The translations under genes were made by a program, and so were the position numbers. A stretch of DNA of 64,000 nt, taken from positions 14,596-78,595 of IMG/VR virus record IMGVR_UViG_3300000651_000004. One strand, written 5' to 3'. The notes under the pieces were generated by a model that saw only the letters and a program-made list of their open reading frames with translations, was not told where the DNA came from and made no database searches. Within the stretch, counting starts at the first letter, position 1. Each line of letters starts with the position of its first letter. This DNA is from a virus. This document shows, in pieces, positions 4,472-63,236 of this stretch.

Positions 4472-4537
4472 GGTAAGTTATAGACTACAAAGTGGAAAAA
4501 GCGGGTCATTCGACTCGCGGGAATTCTACAATCGCAT

Positions 4538-4837
4538 ATGTCTCAAGGAAGCAATCCCGGATGTAAAGCCATGGAAAGCCAGGTTGCGCGCGTGCCTGGA
4601 ACCAATATTGGCGGGGGTGCTAAACCCGGCCCCAATGACGGCACAAAGCATATCAACCCAGTCCCAAGCTTTTCAGGTGGTTCGGGAGGACATGACCGGG
4701 CAACAAACCCGCGCGAAAAAGCAATGGAAGGAGAAGTAAATCCAGTGCCAAAAGGTGGCGGCGGCGGCCGATCTTCACGCGCATCACAAGGAACAAATTT
4801 CGCAGCCAAGCGGGCTGCAGTCAGAAAAAAAGGGTAA
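4538..4837 (+). CDS. Small Gly/Lys/Arg-rich disordered protein
   Basis: ORF with ATG just after the divergent intergenic gap; low complexity with a basic C-terminus. Confidence 0.55.
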   Translation: MSQGSNPGCKAMESQVARVPGTNIGGGAKPGPNDGTKHINPVPSFSGGSGGHDRATNPREKAMEGEVNPVPKGGGGGRSSRASQGTNFAAKRAAVRKKG

Positions 4838-4970
4838 AAAGAACCAGCAAAGCCCAGATGGGCGGTTCCAGTTCTCCTGATCCGCGGTTTGGAGCAGCCC
4901 GATGGAACATGTGAGTGACCAAGGTTTAAAGAATTTTATTGCCTTGGTTTTGGAACAAGAAGAATCACCA

Positions 4971-5207
4971 ATGGCTAAGCTCACAGCAGCTAAACGCAGA
5001 GCGCTTCCCTCTAAAAGCTTCGCTCTTCCCGGCAAGGGAAAAGGGCCTGAAGGCAAAGGCGCTGGTTCTTATCCGATCCCAGATCGCAGCCATGCACAAA
5101 ATGCATTGGCGCGCGTCAGTCAACACGGTTCTTCAGAGGAAAAAGCCAGGGTGCGCGCGAAAGTGCGTGCAAAATATCCAGGGATGGGTAAAGCCAAGAA
5201 GAAGTAA
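4971..5207 (+). CDS. Small basic protein, DUF6582-like
   Basis: MAKLTAAKRRALPSKSFALP...YPIPDRSHAQNALARV pattern. An alternative in-frame ATG exists at 4902. Confidence 0.75.
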   Translation: MAKLTAAKRRALPSKSFALPGKGKGPEGKGAGSYPIPDRSHAQNALARVSQHGSSEEKARVRAKVRAKYPGMGKAKKK

Positions 5208-5213
5208 TTTTAA

Positions 5214-5310
5214 TGCCGGGAGCAAGAGAGCGTATCTGCTTTGTTTCGGACTCACCTCCTTTCCAAAGCGTGAACGGGCTCCGGTGCGGGTAACTGCACC
5301 CCCGGCACCA
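5214..5310 (+). ncRNA. Putative tRNA-like structured RNA with an anti-Shine-Dalgarno loop
   Basis: TGCCGGG (5214-5220) pairs with CCCGGCA (5301-5307), followed by CCA. GGTGCGG-GTAA-CTGCACC hairpin. The GCTTTG/CAAAGC stem encloses CTCACCTCCTTT. It fills the intergenic gap. Confidence 0.55.
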
Positions 5311-5315
5311 TTTTT

Positions 5316-5738
5316 ATGCCTCCTTCAATTCCTGCACCGGGAATTCCACCTGAAGTACGGCTTTCAACTCAAGTGCCAGCCGGGGTAAAATTGCCAGCTG
5401 GCACCCAACCCAATCAATTGGATAACCCACCCCTGACCCGTTCGATTATTCCGAGCGCCACCCCGCCCCAATACGTGGTCAGCGACCCTTTTACCGGGTT
5501 GGGAGTGATTGAGGTTTTGAATATTCGAGCAGCCATGTTGGCGCGCCTGGAGCTGCTTGACGCGGACAAGGAAGTTAATCCCGACAATGTTGACGCTGTA
5601 AAACGGGTCCTGGCTGTTTTAAGCGCCAAGCTCGACCCTCGCCCTGCCAATGCAGGACTCGCAGTGCTTCCGATCCCCGCACCACCGCCGGCCCTGGTTG
5701 GGACAGTGCCGATGCCTCAACCGTTGCCGCTTAAATAA
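5316..5738 (+). CDS. Pro-rich hypothetical protein
   Basis: 140-aa ORF with a central helical segment. Confidence 0.65.
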   Translation: MPPSIPAPGIPPEVRLSTQVPAGVKLPAGTQPNQLDNPPLTRSIIPSATPPQYVVSDPFTGLGVIEVLNIRAAMLARLELLDADKEVNPDNVDAVKRVLAVLSAKLDPRPANAGLAVLPIPAPPPALVGTVPMPQPLPLK

Positions 5739-6286
5739 TTGGCGGCGATCTGGGTCCAGGCGCTCAAGCGGCCGGCAATAAAAAGATAAGGAGCCAGTGA
5801 TGCCGGTAATCCGATCGTGATCGCTACACACGCTGTGTAAGCGCTGGGATTTGGATAAAGTTGTTTGCCCAACGCTGCAAACTCGGCAGTAACCGAATCC
5901 AATCTCCTGGCCAGTTCAGGCCGGAACTTGCGAAGAAGATCATCTACTTCGACCCAGATTGGATCAATCTCTTCCCGCTGGAACGTGCCGCCCCATCCCG
6001 GCACTCTTTCATTACGACCAAGGATCAACGGCATTTCGATTGCTGGGAAAGGCTGATCCAAAAATTCGACAGTTTTCTCTAAAGGCGCATGCTTAGCGCC
6101 GATGCATAATATCCCAGCCGCAATCGCTTTCGCCAGACACCCGCCGCCAGCGGCAGCGTTGGTGACCGTGACAGTGGACGGATTATTGCGAAAAGTACTT
6201 TCATGATGCGCACGAAAGAGCGCATCCAGTAACTGCTGCTCGCTTTCGGTGAGCGGTTCAGCACGCCAAAAAGGAACAATGCCCAT
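5717..6286 (-). CDS. Citrate synthase / citryl-CoA lyase-fold protein with a degenerate active site
   Basis: LLDAL..AH...N(P)ST..., AIAAG...GxxH, RVPGWGG (canonical IPGFGH), LYPNPS (canonical LxPNVD), LFIAGRLSAW (canonical FxxxRxxGW). Confidence 0.7.
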   Translation of the reverse strand: MGIVPFWRAEPLTESEQQLLDALFRAHHESTFRNNPSTVTVTNAAAGGGCLAKAIAAGILCIGAKHAPLEKTVEFLDQPFPAIEMPLILGRNERVPGWGGTFQREEIDPIWVEVDDLLRKFRPELARRLDSVTAEFAALGKQLYPNPSAYTACVAITIGLPASLAPYLFIAGRLSAWTQIAANYLSGNG

Positions 6287-6497
6287 GCCCGATCTTATTT
6301 TAGAGGAAAAACCTATTTATTTAAATGGCGTAGAGCGGGAAATTCTGCTTTACGACCTGCATTGCAGGCTGAGCGATCTGCTCAATTATATTGACCTGGC
6401 TAAGACGCATTTGAGCGCCATGCCGGAAAACTGGGTTCGTTTAAGGGCCAGCACCTTACGAACCTTGATAGCAAAGCTGGAAGAAGAAACAAAATGA
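6279..6497 (+). CDS. Hypothetical protein
   Basis: ATG at 6279 or 6285; the stop is ATGA-coupled to the next gene. Confidence 0.6.
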   Translation: MPMPDLILEEKPIYLNGVEREILLYDLHCRLSDLLNYIDLAKTHLSAMPENWVRLRASTLRTLIAKLEEETK

Positions 6498-10738: not shown

Positions 10739-10907
10739 TGTGATTAGCTTTTTTACGTGACCCTAGCGGTACGTAATCAACACCGCCATCTTCGTGAATC
10801 TTAATGGCGAAAGGTTGCAGGATTTCATCGTGCCCTTCGTTTAAAGCAGCTGCGTAAGCATCATCAATCATCTCACAAAGTTCATCCTTGAATTGCTCGA
10901 TGTTCAT
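10731..10907 (-). CDS. Small hypothetical protein
   Basis: MNIEQFKDEL...; preceded by GGAGAG. Confidence 0.55.
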   Translation of the reverse strand: MNIEQFKDELCEMIDDAYAAALNEGHDEILQPFAIKIHEDGGVDYVPLGSRKKANHSV

Positions 10908-11448
10908 CGGACTCTCCTGGTTTATTATCGACGAAATTTTCAAGCCCGATTGCAATCGCGTCTGCCAGGAGCGTCAGGTAATCGAGCTTCATTAACTGCT
11001 GCTCGGTTTCCGGGTGCGAGATGAAACCCACCTCAACCAGGATAGCCGGCATGCGCGTACCATTTAAGACGTGCAAATCGCTTCGATGCTTCAATCCACG
11101 ATTACGTTCTCTAGTTACCGCAATCAAAGACTGTTGCACTGGTGTTGCTAGGGCTTTACCTTTTTCAGTCTTATATAATGTCTCAATCCCGTGAGCATCC
11201 GGGCCGTCCGAGTTGCAATGAATACTCACGAAATAATCCGCGCCCCAATCGTTTGCTACTTCGCACCGGTAACCAAGAGAGATAAATATTTCGCTAGTCC
11301 GGGTAAGCAATGTGCTCCAACCATATTCTTGCAACACTTTACTCATCTCTTCAGAGATGATCAGGTTAGTGGCTGATTCAGTCAGCCCGTGCTTACCTAC
11401 GGCACCTGGGTCGGTGCCGCCGTGGCCTGGATCGATAGCAATTTTCAT
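10882..11448 (-). CDS. N-acetylmuramoyl-L-alanine amidase (Amidase_3), endolysin
   Basis: IAIDPGHGG, E, VSIHCN and ILVEVGF Zn-binding and catalytic motifs. Confidence 0.95.
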   Translation of the reverse strand: MKIAIDPGHGGTDPGAVGKHGLTESATNLIISEEMSKVLQEYGWSTLLTRTSEIFISLGYRCEVANDWGADYFVSIHCNSDGPDAHGIETLYKTEKGKALATPVQQSLIAVTRERNRGLKHRSDLHVLNGTRMPAILVEVGFISHPETEQQLMKLDYLTLLADAIAIGLENFVDNKPGESDEHRAIQG

Positions 11449-58603: not shown

Positions 58604-58786
58604 ATGCCAAAACCACTAACCGGCGGACCTCTAACCGGGGGCGCGGAAGCGCCCGGCCCAAAGCCAAACATGCGCCCCCAGAAGCGTCGGCGCGCACGCA
58701 TTCCCTTACCCGCTAAAAGCGCTGTCGGGCGCAAAATCGATGCTCAAGCCCGCCTGCGACAGGCCACATCCGGAATCAAAAAATGA
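58604..58786 (+). CDS. 60-aa basic peptide
   Basis: GGAG upstream; the stop is ATGA-coupled to the next gene. Confidence 0.55.
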   Translation: MPKPLTGGPLTGGAEAPGPKPNMRPQKRRRARIPLPAKSAVGRKIDAQARLRQATSGIKK

Positions 58787-59904
58787 GCGAGCCTCCCAGC
58801 CCGATTGCCATCTGCCCAAGACAAAACGATCCCAATTCGCTCTGGGTGGCTTGCGTAGATGGTTCGGTCTGGATCTTATCGCCCAATATCGATTCGGTCG
58901 GATCTCCTTACCCTTTTCAAGATACAGGCCAAAATTGGCTTTGGGAAAAACTGCCGCCGATCCCCCAACTCAACGGGGTAACTTATAATCCAGTTGCCAT
59001 CTCTCCCAGCCAGACTGATCCCAATTCGGTCTGGGTAGCTTGTTCAGACGGTTCAGTCTGGACTCTGTCGCCCAATATCGATCCAGCTCCTTATCCCTAT
59101 CGAGATACAGGCCAAGCCTGGAGCTGGAAAAAATTGCCTACCCTTCCAGGGGCAGTAGCCCCGCCAGGGGGAATCGGACCTCCAGGGCCACAAGGGCCGC
59201 AAGGACCAGCTGGTGCTCCCGGAGTACCGGGACCAATAGGCCCACCTGGGCATTCTTCAGATGATGCACCTTATAAATGGTCGACAGCGACCGCAGCGGC
59301 TAACCCTGGCAGCGGCGAAATTGCTGGTAATAACGCCACTATTTCCTCTGTCACCCATATTTATGCCAATGCTTTTGATCAAACCGGAGCAGGAGTTTTT
59401 GGTCTAAGGCAGCTTGTTGATTCAAGACCATTGTTCCTGTACGAAGCCGCTGCTGCCAATCAAAGTGTCAAATTTAAGGTTGTCGGTACGCCGGTCAATA
59501 ATGGACCAGACATTTGGTTTGATATCACGGTCACCTTAGACACCCTCAACGGATTCAGCCCTAAAAATAACGATCCAGTTCAGCTTTTCCTTCCAGTACA
59601 AGGCACAGCAGGGCCACAAGGGCCACCTGGGCCACAAGGACCGGCAGGACCGCAAGGGCCTCCGGGAACTTCCGGGTCAGCAGTCAAATTTGTCTGGGGT
59701 GAAATTCCAACCGGGGCTATCAACGGTACAAACCAAGTCTTTACCACTGCCAGCGCCTACAGCCCAGGCTTGCTTGCCGTTTTCTTAAACGGAATGCGGC
59801 AACGACACCCCGCCGATTATTCGGAGACAGGAAGCCAAACCTTCCAGTTTGTCGCTGCTCCGCTGTCTGGAGACAGTATCTCCATCGATTACACCCAACC
59901 CTAA
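58783..59904 (+). CDS. Collagen-containing virion decoration / fibre protein with an N-terminal tandem repeat
   Basis: Two ~55-aa DPNSxWVACxDGSVW repeats, GXY runs, and a C-terminal VFLNG..Q..DY beta domain. Confidence 0.8.
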
Positions 59905-59909
59905 ACCAT

Positions 59910-60968
59910 ATGGCCAGCACCCAAATTCGCGGCACCACCCAGATTCAAGTGGGAACAATCGCGGATGCTCAAGTTCAAGCAGCAGCCGCGATTCAAACCA
60001 GCAAACTCGCCGATGGCGCGAAATTCATTAAGTCAGACGGCACCGTGCCGATGCTGGCGACACTGCAGATGGGTACCGGCACACCAGCCGCACCTGCCGG
60101 AACTCAGGCAATCAGTCAGGTTACCAATCCCGTAAACCCGCAGGACGTCGCCACCAAAAGCTACGTTGATACCGCAGTGGCTAATATCGCCACTTCAAGC
60201 ACAACCGTGCTGGCCACTACGATTGGTGCAAATATCACCTTGAGCGGTACGCAGACTCTAGACGGTATCGCGCTTTCTGTCGGCAACAAGGTGCTGGTCA
60301 AGGATCAGACCTCCCAAGCCACCAACGGTATTTACCAGGTGCAATCAGCTGCCTGGACACGTGACCCGTCGATGACCAACTGGAATCAGGTGCCTGGAAT
60401 GATCATCTCAGTCGAACAAGGCACCACCATGCACGACACGGTGTGGTTGTCCACAGCTGATCCCGGCGGCACCATGGGGACTACTGCAATCACGTTCACC
60501 CAAATGCCGGGGCCAAGCGACATCATTCCCGGCATGGGTCTGACCCGATCGGGGCAAACACTTAATGTAGCCTGCCCCGACGCCTCGCTCACCCTGGCTA
60601 CCGGAGCAGTCAACGTTAAAATCGATCCGGCGCGTGCCATCACCCTGGTGGCTGCTGGTATCGGGGTCAACGCCGATGGCACTACCCTGGTCATCACCAG
60701 CAATGTCTTAGGCGTCAAACCTGGGCTATACATGCCGATCATGGGCACCGGCAACCGAGTGACACGAGAAGTTGTCGGCGGTGCATTCCCCGGCACAGCT
60801 TACACCCTGGCCCACGCGCCCAACCCGGTGGGATGCGAAGAAGTTTTCCTAAACGGGCTGCTACTTCAATCAGGTGCCGGGAACGATTATACAATCTCAG
60901 GGACCGCCATCACCATGCTCACCACGACCTCCAGTGGCGACAAACTACTGGCCAACTATTGGTATTAA
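59910..60968 (+). CDS. Fibre / decoration protein
   Basis: QDVATKSYVD stalk, NITLSGTQTLDG..VLVKDQ..NGIY, C-terminal VFLNG..NDYTISG. Confidence 0.8.
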   Translation: MASTQIRGTTQIQVGTIADAQVQAAAAIQTSKLADGAKFIKSDGTVPMLATLQMGTGTPAAPAGTQAISQVTNPVNPQDVATKSYVDTAVANIATSSTTVLATTIGANITLSGTQTLDGIALSVGNKVLVKDQTSQATNGIYQVQSAAWTRDPSMTNWNQVPGMIISVEQGTTMHDTVWLSTADPGGTMGTTAITFTQMPGPSDIIPGMGLTRSGQTLNVACPDASLTLATGAVNVKIDPARAITLVAAGIGVNADGTTLVITSNVLGVKPGLYMPIMGTGNRVTREVVGGAFPGTAYTLAHAPNPVGCEEVFLNGLLLQSGAGNDYTISGTAITMLTTTSSGDKLLANYWY

Positions 60969-60969
60969 A

Positions 60970-62043
60970 ATGCCCCAGACCCAGGTCAGAGGTTCCCAGA
61001 TCCTTAATAACACAGTCCAACGGCAGGACTTGGATACCTCGACCGTTGGGCAGGCTGTTGTCACTAAACTGGTCCAGGGCAGTAATGTCACTTTCAGCTC
61101 GACCGGAGCTGATGCAGGAACCGGCGATGTCACCATTAACGTAGCCAGTGTTCAAGGGCCAACCGGTCCCGCTGGTCCAGCCGGGACACCGGCCTGGACC
61201 ACAGCCAGTGCCGGGTTCACGATTCCGGCAATCGGCTCGACGGTGGTGGTGACCGTGGCGGACCCAACCTGGATGACTGTGGGCGAATTTGTCTATGTAG
61301 CTGGAGCCAGCGGCTCCGGACAAGCCGGTACATTGCAAATTACAAATATCACCGGCAACCAGGTAACCTTGCTCAATGCCGGCGGTGCCTCCGGAGCACT
61401 AATCAGCTCGGATGCCGGGAACTACGCCAAACTGGGTTCAGATAATCTGGTCTTTGTGCCGAACGCACTGGCTTCAACAAGCGCGCGTGGACTTTTAAGC
61501 CCACTCTCAGGTGCAGCTACAGATTTTGTGGGCGGTGACAATACAACCCATTCCTTGGTAACCGCACTTCTAGGATATCTCGTACCAACCGGAGCAGTCA
61601 TCGATTACGCAGGAGCAACTGCCCCAACAGGATTTCTTCTCGCCCAAGGTCAAGCGGTCAGTCGAACAACCTACAGCGGACTTTACACAGCGCTTGGAGG
61701 AGCCGGTTCGCCTTGGGGCCAAGGTGATGGCTCGACCACGTTCAATGTGCCGGATCTGCGCAGCCGTGTGCCAGTTGGCGCAGGTCAAGGAACCGGGCTT
61801 TCAAACTACGCTTTGGCAGCGACTGGAGGTGAGGAAACTCATAGACTTGTACAAGCCGAAATGCCAAGCCACATGCATTATGCAATGTCCAACCCTGTTG
61901 GTTACGCAGGCGGATCATATGGAGCGCATACAAGCTGCGCCAGTACAGGTAATAGCGTTGTTCCATGTACTAGTGCCGGTAGCGACGGAGCGCACAACAA
62001 CATCCAGCCTTACCTGGTGATGAACAAAATCATCAAGACATGA
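60970..62043 (+). CDS. Tail fibre with a beta repeat and collar domain
   Basis: ATG at 60970; FTIP..GNQVTLLN repeat; PTGAVIDYAG..GDGSTTFNVPDLR. Confidence 0.88.
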   Translation: MPQTQVRGSQILNNTVQRQDLDTSTVGQAVVTKLVQGSNVTFSSTGADAGTGDVTINVASVQGPTGPAGPAGTPAWTTASAGFTIPAIGSTVVVTVADPTWMTVGEFVYVAGASGSGQAGTLQITNITGNQVTLLNAGGASGALISSDAGNYAKLGSDNLVFVPNALASTSARGLLSPLSGAATDFVGGDNTTHSLVTALLGYLVPTGAVIDYAGATAPTGFLLAQGQAVSRTTYSGLYTALGGAGSPWGQGDGSTTFNVPDLRSRVPVGAGQGTGLSNYALAATGGEETHRLVQAEMPSHMHYAMSNPVGYAGGSYGAHTSCASTGNSVVPCTSAGSDGAHNNIQPYLVMNKIIKT

Positions 62044-63236
62044 GCAACGGCGTTGAAGTTTTATCTGGCGTTCCCGGCACCGTCGTGCCGAGCGGAGCGC
62101 TCATTACGCCAGGAGGCCAACAGGGGCCAGGTGGGCAACCTGCTTACACAGTTAACACAGCCGCCTTCACCGTTCCCGCAGCCGGTTCAACCGTCGTGAT
62201 AAACGTGAACAACGCCAGCTGGGCGGCTCAAGGAGAATGGGTCTACGTGGCCGGCGCAGACGGCGCAGGCGGGGCGGCAGTCCTACAGATCACCAACATT
62301 TCTGGCAACCAGCTTACCTTGCTGAATCCCGGTCCCGGAACAATAACGCCACCTCTAGCCAGTGTTACGGGAGCTGGGCTCTTAAGTCAGATCAGCGGCA
62401 GAACCACTGATTACGTAGGAGGCGACAATCTCTGCCATCCTTTGAGCATGGTGAGCGGCTTTATTGCCAAGAGTGCCGCCTACAGTGTGCTGCCTGCCGA
62501 TTCTGGCAAATACTTCCTCTGCACCGGAACAGGATGGACCTTGACCCTACCTATGGCGGCGGCGGGTCTTTACTATTATATTCGAAACGACCAGGGATTG
62601 ATAGCGGCTGGTACGATCACGATTGCCGCGCAAGGCGGTCAGACCATCGACGGTGCAACTTCGATCAATCTGCTTCCGGGTCAGGACTGCACGATTATCA
62701 CCGATGGTTCGAATTATCGAACATTCGGATTGAAGCGCGAGGTGATTGTCGGAACCATCGACGGAGCAGGAGGACAAACCGTTTTACTTCCCTCCGGTTA
62801 TCGGATTTTCGAGTTAGAATTTACAGGGATTCAAACAACTGGTGGCGGCGATCAATGGATCTGGTTCCAAGTGAGCAGTAATGGCGGCACTACATGGATC
62901 GCAGCAAATTACTATAATGGGTTCCTTTACAACACCAGCGGAACAGCAGCAGCGTATCTAAATCAGAATAATCAAACGCGGTCCTATCTGGTTCCTATGA
63001 CCGCCAATACGGCTCAGCAATATGCAATGGCGAAGCTTATACTCTATCCGGGCAAGACAGGTGAGAATCCCAATTGGCTTACGGATTGCGGATATTGGTA
63101 CGTAGGTGGAGCGATAACACAAAAATATAACATCTGGGGATTTCTGGATCAGCAAGTGTTGCTAAACGCACTCCAATACTATCCAAACGCTGGCAGTATC
63201 ACCAATATGCACGTCACCGTGAAAGGAAAAGTATAG
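62040..63236 (+). CDS. Tail fibre with a plug motif, beta repeat and tip domain
   Basis: PGTVVPSGALITPGG, the FTVP repeat, and a TLTLP..TIDG..TDGSN module. Confidence 0.85.
   Translation: MSNGVEVLSGVPGTVVPSGALITPGGQQGPGGQPAYTVNTAAFTVPAAGSTVVINVNNASWAAQGEWVYVAGADGAGGAAVLQITNISGNQLTLLNPGPGTITPPLASVTGAGLLSQISGRTTDYVGGDNLCHPLSMVSGFIAKSAAYSVLPADSGKYFLCTGTGWTLTLPMAAAGLYYYIRNDQGLIAAGTITIAAQGGQTIDGATSINLLPGQDCTIITDGSNYRTFGLKREVIVGTIDGAGGQTVLLPSGYRIFELEFTGIQTTGGGDQWIWFQVSSNGGTTWIAANYYNGFLYNTSGTAAAYLNQNNQTRSYLVPMTANTAQQYAMAKLILYPGKTGENPNWLTDCGYWYVGGAITQKYNIWGFLDQQVLLNALQYYPNAGSITNMHVTVKGKV

Follow-up and report, generated by a model that had tools for sequence, protein, structure and literature searches.

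Few phage small RNAs are understood, and almost none of these come from uncultured soil phages. The C4 antisense RNA uses its loops to base-pair with a phage mRNA at the ribosome-binding region, and other C/U-rich regulators that are complementary to Shine-Dalgarno (SD) sequences, here called anti-SD, occur as cis strands of riboswitches and thermometers or in small RNAs with C-rich loops, such as RsaE/RoxS. C4, which is encoded by phages P1 and P7, is transfer RNA (tRNA)-like and a substrate of RNase P, and plant mitochondrial t-elements separate individual mRNAs (PMC3858429). We examined a 64,000-nucleotide (nt) stretch of viral DNA (the window), which corresponds to G000:C1:14596-78595 of a 78.6-kb IMG/VR virus record (IMGVR_UViG_3300000651_000004) detected almost exclusively in soil metagenomes. 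An earlier annotation made from the letters of the window (the sequence-only reading) had proposed a tRNA-like RNA at positions 5214 to 5310 of the + strand, and all the features that it listed were found there. This element belongs to a real, evolutionarily conserved family of structured RNAs of soil phages that no curated library describes, as judged against Rfam 15 and within the limits of these tools. In kind, it is one of the non-decoding tRNA-like RNAs of mobile elements; new are an unrelated conserved core and a modular tip. Comparison of the family members leads us to read it, tentatively, as the single-copy gene of a stable, tRNA-processed, trans-acting small RNA of about 75 to 100 nt, to which we give slightly less than an even chance.

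Structure of the element and comparison with known RNAs

The element lies within the 108 bases that separate the stop codon of a 101-amino-acid (aa) open reading frame (ORF) from the ATG of a 140-aa ORF. Its A/U-rich 5' flank, TTTTAA (5208-5213), gives together with T5214 the family consensus AAU before the first G. The 5' strand of an acceptor-like terminal helix, TGCCGGG (U plus GCCGGG; 5214-5220), pairs with CCCGGCA (CCCGGC plus A; 5301-5307), after which comes a single-stranded CCA (5308-5310). Between these strands are the junction AGCAAG and core block 1, AGAGCGUAUCU (5221-5237 together, with the block at 5227-5237), a hypervariable arm (5238-5269), the invariant core block 2, GUGAACGGGCUCC (5270-5282), and, where a tRNA has its T arm, a 7-bp hairpin capped by a GNRA loop, GGTGCGG-GTAA-CTGCACC (5283-5300). 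The GAGC inside block 1 (5228-5231) can pair with GCTC at 5278-5281. The arm consists of a stem, GCTTTG (5238-5243) with CAAAGC (5264-5269), and a 20-nt loop (5244-5263) that holds the 12-nt anti-SD-like sequence TCACCTCCTTTC at 5252-5263. RNAfold returned this three-way junction as both the minimum free energy and the centroid structure (-42.3 kcal/mol, z = -3.0), an energy that 1 of 200 shuffles matched; the reverse strand folded worse, with an unremarkable z of -1.85. No junction nucleotide separates the GUAA hairpin from the terminal helix, and the two therefore form a stack of 13 to 14 bp with a GNRA cap.

The likeness to a tRNA or minihelix lies in the G+C-rich terminal stem of 6 to 7 bp starting with G, in the second helix stacked in the T-arm position, in the purine plus CCA, and in the U at position -1. 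In place of the acceptor stem, discriminator, and CCA of a tRNA, the family has a covarying stem of 6 to 7 bp, a purine, and CC(A). In contrast to a tRNA, the element has neither a D arm nor an anticodon stem-loop, carries a GNRA tetraloop on a 7-bp stem where a tRNA has the T-loop UUCRANY on a 5-bp stem, and forms a stack of 13 to 14 bp rather than 12. ARAGORN found no tRNA or transfer-messenger RNA (tmRNA) in the whole window and none at the element in 13 carrier loci and six carrier genomes. Similarly, Rfam 15 gave nothing at gathering scores in the window and nothing on the element at E values up to 10 in 17 members (the window and 16 others), the tRNA model RF00005 included; the same run detected a true tRNA-Met in locus L333. 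We thus rejected a tRNA, a tmRNA, and a known Rfam family, and the sequence-only reading was right that this is not a canonical tRNA. Moreover, the G3-U70 pair of tmRNA is absent in every member, pair 3 being UA, GC, or CG. A 91-nt "tRNA-Ala(CGC)" that ARAGORN called at L058:7985-8075 (-), in the 3' end of a Gly/Pro-rich portal ORF, is almost certainly a false positive.

Among the tRNA-like RNAs, C4 is the nearest working model, as a phage-encoded small RNA and tRNA-processed riboregulator. Its model (RF01695) did not match the element at E values up to 10, however, and the core sequences differ; C4 has defined cis-encoded targets whereas a crude duplex scan found none for the element, and its hosts are enterobacteria rather than the soil bacteria of the element's carriers. 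We therefore regard the resemblance as one of functional analogy and not of membership. The t-elements and MALAT1/mascRNA share with the element a non-decoding tRNA-like fold that lies between coding segments and could recruit RNase P or 3' processing. They are eukaryotic or organellar, derived from tRNAs, and recur along genomes, whereas the element is single copy and sometimes antisense to its neighbors, and its large invariant core is unrelated to tRNA. Like the anti-SD regulators, the element of the window has a single-stranded loop containing CCUCC that could pair with GGAGG in ribosome-binding sites. Unlike them, it copies 12 consecutive nucleotides of the 16S tail and not the core motif alone, and does so on a tRNA-like chassis, in carriers that seldom use SD sequences and with no nearby SD to sequester in cis.

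A conserved structured RNA family in soil phages

In Logan contigs from four soil runs that covered positions 4500 to 6300, depth rose from ∼2 to 4 to 25 to 30 only across the element. Logan contigs with wholly different flanks aligned at the element alone, and the loose ends of such contigs continued into other 7-bp GNRA hairpins, each with a 7-nt strand of its own between hairpin and CCA. The first homologues in IMG/VR contigs were found with a 14-mer from the 3' core (block 2), and patterns built on both blocks then yielded 14 viral and 47 metagenome loci; a scan with a 14-mer from block 1 gave chance matches only. The family total combines the pattern scans with a covariance model, R1, which scored 63 copies at 43 to 95 bits. 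These represent 35 distinct sequences, never two per locus, all of them from viral or metagenome contigs of soils. In six viral records (18 to 79 kb, the window's own included), the element occurs exactly once each.

The two core patterns found no bacterial or archaeal copy in 185,579 species, searched as one genome per species. Among 50,697 isolate phages, there was no DNA match, near or distant, and no match to the TerL protein of the window phage. A 2023 survey of IMG/VR predicted 8,495 structured RNA candidates (Fremin et al., PMC10690425), and this family may be among them; its text describes no motif with these features and no anti-SD loop.

Covariation was measured on the R1-based alignment (705 cells, 21 pairs) against 500 shuffles with five measures. 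Standard pairs filled 98.6% of the cells, compared to 77.6% in shuffles and 37 to 51% with slid partners. Changes on both sides occurred in 17 of the 21 pairs, and no shuffle reached any of the five measures. All 7 pairs of the terminal helix covary (99.1% of cells paired), double changes occur at all 7 pairs of the GNRA hairpin, and three pairs covary at the base of the arm. The putative GAGC/GCUC helix is invariant throughout the members, so that covariation has no bearing on its pairing. G-U pairs are frequent (17 at pair 1 and 6 in the hairpin) and valid only in + strand RNA, which fixes the strand from which the RNA is read. The structured + strand RNA of the sequence-only reading is thus genuine, supported by strong covariation in the form of compensatory changes across 35 distinct homologues. 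In a variant strain, the adjacent ORF had at least 23 substitutions in 94 nt, whereas the element could have at most 4 differences, none of them among those listed.

The blocks AGAGCGUAUCU and GUGAACGGGCUC are invariant across members, and the core amounts to ∼24 invariant nucleotides. Hairpin loops across the family are GUAA, GUGA, GCAA, or GAAA, and one subgroup has a stem of 4 to 5 bp with an A-rich loop of 6 to 8 nt in place of the GNRA form. At the 5' end, 29 of 34 members have a U directly before the first G, mostly after AA. The 3' end is complete in 33 distinct members. In every one of these, a purine follows the 6-bp stem, and the tail that comes next is CCA (23 members), CCU (9), or CCC (1); most tails other than CCA continue as a U-rich stretch. 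The U at -1 and the purine before CC can pair in every case, and a 7-bp helix fits as well as a 6-bp helix with a discriminator. Thus, the tRNA-like terminal stem that had been proposed is kept across the family, with its purine-CC(A) tail and its U at -1. The T-run after CCA is not a conserved feature, since roughly 40% of members lack it; in the window, TTTTT occupies 5311-5315 and could be a weak terminator tail or a U-rich leader of the next gene. This run begins 3 nt after the helix, and a scan for intrinsic terminators did not flag the element.

An invariant core of this kind could also belong to a new self-cleaving ribozyme or to another catalytic or ligand-binding RNA, with the invariant junction and internal-loop nucleotides as the active site or pocket, the helices as scaffold alone, and the ends marking a cleavage site. 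Phages are rich in hammerhead and twister ribozymes, and such an RNA would account for a short motif, for nucleotides that stay fixed although they are unpaired or bulged, for the free covariation of the stems, for the varying length of one stem, and for scattering among unrelated phage genes. No known model scored on the element in the 17 members at E values up to 10, however, self-cleaving ribozyme and riboswitch models of Rfam 15 among them. In addition, the purine-CCA overhang and the U at -1 are more readily accounted for by tRNA-type processing, and a metabolite switch would not be expected in front of such diverse genes. We consider this explanation improbable.

The variable arm and its anti-SD-like loop

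The arm between the invariant blocks is a hairpin whose length varies among members from 10 to 33 nt, and the shortest arms are CC-GAAA-GG or GGUC-GCAA-GACC. The arm has no conserved reading frame, as its lengths are not divisible by three. The anti-SD-like loop, which we call class A, is found in 4 distinct members (the window, L313, L086/L119/L298, and L064). In these four, TCACCTCCTTTC is invariant, and the 20-nt loop is identical within pairs and identical at 17 of 20 positions between pairs, whereas the supporting stems, terminal helices, and hairpins all differ. The loop was kept while the stems changed, which argues for selection on the loop sequence itself. The loop matches 12 nt of ...CACCUCCUUUCU, a 16S tail present in many bacteria, and in the window it is identical to the 3' end of Escherichia coli rrsH over 10 nt (TCACCTCCTT at 16S:1532). 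A related loop in L297/L300 has lost CCUCC.

The sequence-only reading had centered on this mimic of the 16S 3' end displayed in the loop. A part of that idea holds, as the 12-mer is selected within its subclass, but 31 of the 35 distinct members do not have the motif. By sequence comparison, the loop is a selected cargo of one subclass and does not define the family. A second long tip recurs on four different chassis (L058, L131, L291, and L325), and L304 and L325 have neighboring genes in common and different tips. Since tips recur across contexts and differ within them, we regard them as exchangeable modules, of which the anti-SD copy is one. The tip is hypervariable and the motif is rare; thus, any conserved function must lie in the invariant core and the tRNA-like end.

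For the loop, the sequence-only reading had also suggested a target in the phage genome; no duplex exceeded those of shuffled loops in any carrier examined. For the arms of 11 carriers compared with their own genomes, the best duplexes were no better than those of shuffled arms, by a crude method that misses short seeds. Other arm tips matched the E. coli rrn operon at shuffle level; 13-nt antisense rRNA matches in L288 and L303 were judged to be chance matches of palindromic hairpin tips. A pattern combining loop and core found no further class A members in IMG/VR. The sole exact match there to a loop 17-mer, in L043, is an ordinary SD on the other strand, and a partial look-alike in L350/L351 is not a family member, as the rest of the fold is absent and R1 gives 15 bits. 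At L350:7802-7842, in a viral contig of lower G+C content, this look-alike reads UAUCU, then a hairpin with TCACCTCCTTTC in its loop, and then GUGAACGG; it may be due to chance or a fragment of the arm module.

Two further observations concern loops of this type. A second CACCTCCTT lies in a separate hairpin, CTGCCCAC...GTGGGCAG, at G000:C1:10880-10920, 3.7 kb before the first base of the window, in an intergenic region rich in hairpins; as R1 finds only one copy in the record, this second sequence does not belong to the family. Several long tips contain palindromes of 6 to 8 nt (arms of L310, L315, L303, L296, L324, and L292), namely, GATCGATC (twice independently), GAAGCTTC, GCTGCAGC, TCACGTGA, and GGTACC. 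These could form loop-loop dimers or reflect plain hairpin symmetry.

The anti-SD-like loop also implies a perfect SD-like sequence, AAAGGAGGTGA, on the - strand, and phage attachment sites often copy tRNA 3' ends. The locus might thus be read as a - strand or DNA feature, such as an SD-led small gene, an attP core from a host tRNA-like gene, or a protein-binding palindrome. Yet neither the window nor L086 offers a start codon at the spacing of an SD, in line with what the sequence-only reading had stated for the window; the only one nearby is a GTG inside AAAGGAGGTGA itself, from which a 40-aa ORF runs antisense to the upstream gene. The - strand motif is also missing from 27 of the 35 distinct members, arm lengths preserve no frame, and the G-U pairs are valid only in + strand RNA. 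An attP would have no host copy to integrate into, given the absence of the two core patterns from the 185,579 species genomes. We consider the - strand or DNA reading close to refuted. A retron, an attP, a pRNA, and a - strand gene were each ruled out by context, strand-specific G-U pairs, and the lack of a host copy.

Genomic placement and neighboring genes

The carrier phages differ in their portals, tail tubes, and head proteins, although the core of the element does not vary among them; the element occupies gaps between genes. It was found after a portal gene (L131 and L058), after a major head gene (L074), after a P2-type tail tube gene (L292 and L311), before a small terminase gene (L285 group), before a collagen-like fiber gene (L290), and before a Mu-type portal gene (L312). 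Most copies lie tightly between co-directional ORFs (roughly 22 versus 5 upstream and 20 versus 7 downstream), and in about 30 of 34 loci the next start codon follows 0 to 17 nt after CCA and has no SD; some loci have no ORF closely downstream. In L304/L325, the element lies within a 480-nt gap and is antisense to both long flanking ORFs, which indicates that it can be its own transcription unit.

In the window, the upstream ORF (101 aa; 4902-5207, +) belongs to PHROG 16160, of unknown function, and ends 6 nt before the element. None of the 42 viral loci with homologues of this gene carries the element, and the two are thus unlinked. The downstream ORF (140 aa; 5316-5738, +) has a proline-rich N terminus and starts 5 nt after CCA without an SD. 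It has no Pfam or PHROG match and no relatives in IMG/VR viral contigs. In the variant strain, 16 of the 23 listed differences in this ORF fall at third codon positions, which marks it as a real gene under purifying selection.

This placement bears on two explanations in which the element acts in cis. In the first, it would punctuate a polycistronic phage transcript as a processing or stability signal, in the manner of t-elements or MALAT1/mascRNA; it would set the 3' end of the message upstream and shield that message against exonucleases, release a short U-rich leader for the downstream gene, and attenuate transcription at U-runs, with the excised RNA as a by-product and the arm tip neutral. 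The close spacing to the stop codon upstream and to the start of a real ORF downstream fits such a signal, as do the mostly co-directional neighbors, the SD-less starts soon after CCA, and the many copies adjoining portal, major head, tail tube, small terminase, and tail fiber genes. U-runs follow the element in over half of the members, tips can be bare tetraloops, and there is established precedent both for t-elements and for the cutting of operon mRNAs by RNase P (PMC3858429). On the other hand, there is one copy per genome instead of many, the antisense placement in L304/L325 does not suit a cis role, and ∼24 invariant core nucleotides with conserved long loops exceed what a stability hairpin needs. 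Neighboring genes are also unrelated across carriers, and the terminator scan was negative. We consider punctuation unlikely, though far from negligible; if true, it would be a bacterial-virus analogue of tRNA punctuation.

In the second, the element would control translation of the next gene, with the terminal helix, 5 nt before the start, blocking or timing SD-less initiation until the block is relieved by unwinding, processing, or a factor bound to the core. Start codons without an SD so close behind the helix in most loci would suit this, as would the SD-poor carriers and the real downstream ORF. However, the downstream genes are unrelated to one another, the copies in L304/L325 are antisense, and some loci have no close ORF, and we find this explanation quite improbable.

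Two sequence features next to the element were observed in single loci or small groups. At L131:2215-2400, ∼27 nt of the portal 3' end (GCAACGG.AACTTACC.ATGGGATGAA) is repeated just past the element; the repeat keeps the upstream stop and the downstream start and resembles an insertion footprint of the element. At L304:2310-2345, a perfect 12-bp hairpin (CCGGCTCTCCCG...CGGGAGAGCCGG) lies directly 5' of the element, and a related sequence, GAGCCGGA, is upstream in three members (L304, L324, and L325).

Carrier phages and proposed function

The six sequenced carriers have little in common beyond an Amidase_3 endolysin (55 to 63% identity), tail-fiber modules, and a few structural genes. In the window, these modules are the Amidase_3 endolysin at 10882-11448 (-) and the collagen/tail-collar fiber genes at 58783-63236 (+), which have 40 to 66% identity with the otherwise dissimilar carriers G001 to G004. 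The shared modules suggest a common host clade and module exchange. Homologues of the endolysin are only metagenomic proteins and proteins of Firmicutes or their phages at ∼40 to 50% identity, which is uninformative on the host. Carriers have 50 to 58% G+C, and their use of SD motifs is barely above the internal control; this scarcity fits a phage immune to SD masking and an SD-poor host, in which masking would be of little use, equally well. No candidate partner protein is common to the carriers, and sharing so little argues against a dedicated phage-encoded partner.

From the structure, the family, its conservation, the copy number, and the context described above, we infer the processing, stability, and trans action of the RNA and a possible role in translation. 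In our reading of the element as a tRNA-processed small RNA gene, the terminal helix and the 7-bp GNRA hairpin would form an acceptor/T-type minihelix, and the third arm would carry the invariant nucleotides and an exchangeable tip. The RNA would be transcribed with its neighbors or, in some phages, alone, and would be excised by host tRNA maturation enzymes, with RNase P acting on the 5' side, followed by 3' trimming and CCA repair. It would then accumulate as a stable RNA whose invariant core engages a factor of the shared host, with the tip providing a lineage-specific activity. In class A, the tip would expose the 12-nt copy of the 16S 3' tail and either pair with SD-like sequences or act as a decoy for a factor that binds the tail.

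The RCCA 3' motif and the residue at -1 affect cleavage by bacterial RNase P (PMC12710915), and E. coli cuts 1 to 3 nt after an encoded CCA (PMC2190699). We read the maturation as tRNA-like because bacterial RNase P and 3' processing make use of just such features, namely, U(-1), the stacked minihelix, and the RCCA tail. Present once per genome and, in L304/L325, antisense to its flanking ORFs, the element resembles a gene more than punctuation. A host partner is suggested by an invariant core in phages that share only host interaction modules, and so deeply conserved a core implies that the partner is specific. Should the RNA be stable and act in trans, nature would have an equivalent of the engineered "tRNA scaffold" and possibly a new means of translational takeover or of decoy defense. 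The family would also serve as a clean marker for soil phages that share a host.

It is important to note that several points weigh against this reading. Membership patterns were drawn from the core blocks, so that the apparent invariance is inflated; a search with block 2 alone returned only members having block 1 intact. The "discriminator" may be merely a seventh base pair. Recognition by RNase P and the CCA-adding enzyme is plausible on the modeled structure, but the 13- to 14-bp stack and the GNRA loop speak against it. The tight co-directional placement is equally explained by a role in cis. Moreover, the tip is able to shrink to a tetraloop, so that a "displayed" tip is unneeded for the core function, and the arms lack a complementary target above shuffled controls.

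Given a tRNA-processed, trans-acting RNA, we put a translation-related role of the class A tip at about one chance in four. A more specific proposal is a modular "display" RNA in soil phages of one host clade, with a tRNA-matured chassis and a swappable tip as its warhead. The class A tip would be a decoy of the 16S tail that titrates host mRNAs with an SD, or else proteins by which the anti-SD tail is bound or sequestered, and thereby tilts initiation toward the SD-less messages of the phage. We regard this proposal as improbable as a whole; if true, it would be a new RNA-based translational takeover, and the other tips would be decoys or guides for other targets.

Two minor observations concern genes of the carriers. 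Class A carriers G002 and G005 have related tRNA-Met(CAU) genes (G002:C1:32171-32247, -, and G005:C1:6659-6734, +), both with a mismatch atop the acceptor stem and without the three G-C pairs in the anticodon stem; in G005, this gene precedes the element by 265 nt on the same strand. In the window, an antisense ORF of 189 aa at 5717-6286 (-) matches the Pfam citrate synthase C-terminal domain (E = 5.7e-11) and has a 57%-identical homologue in G002.

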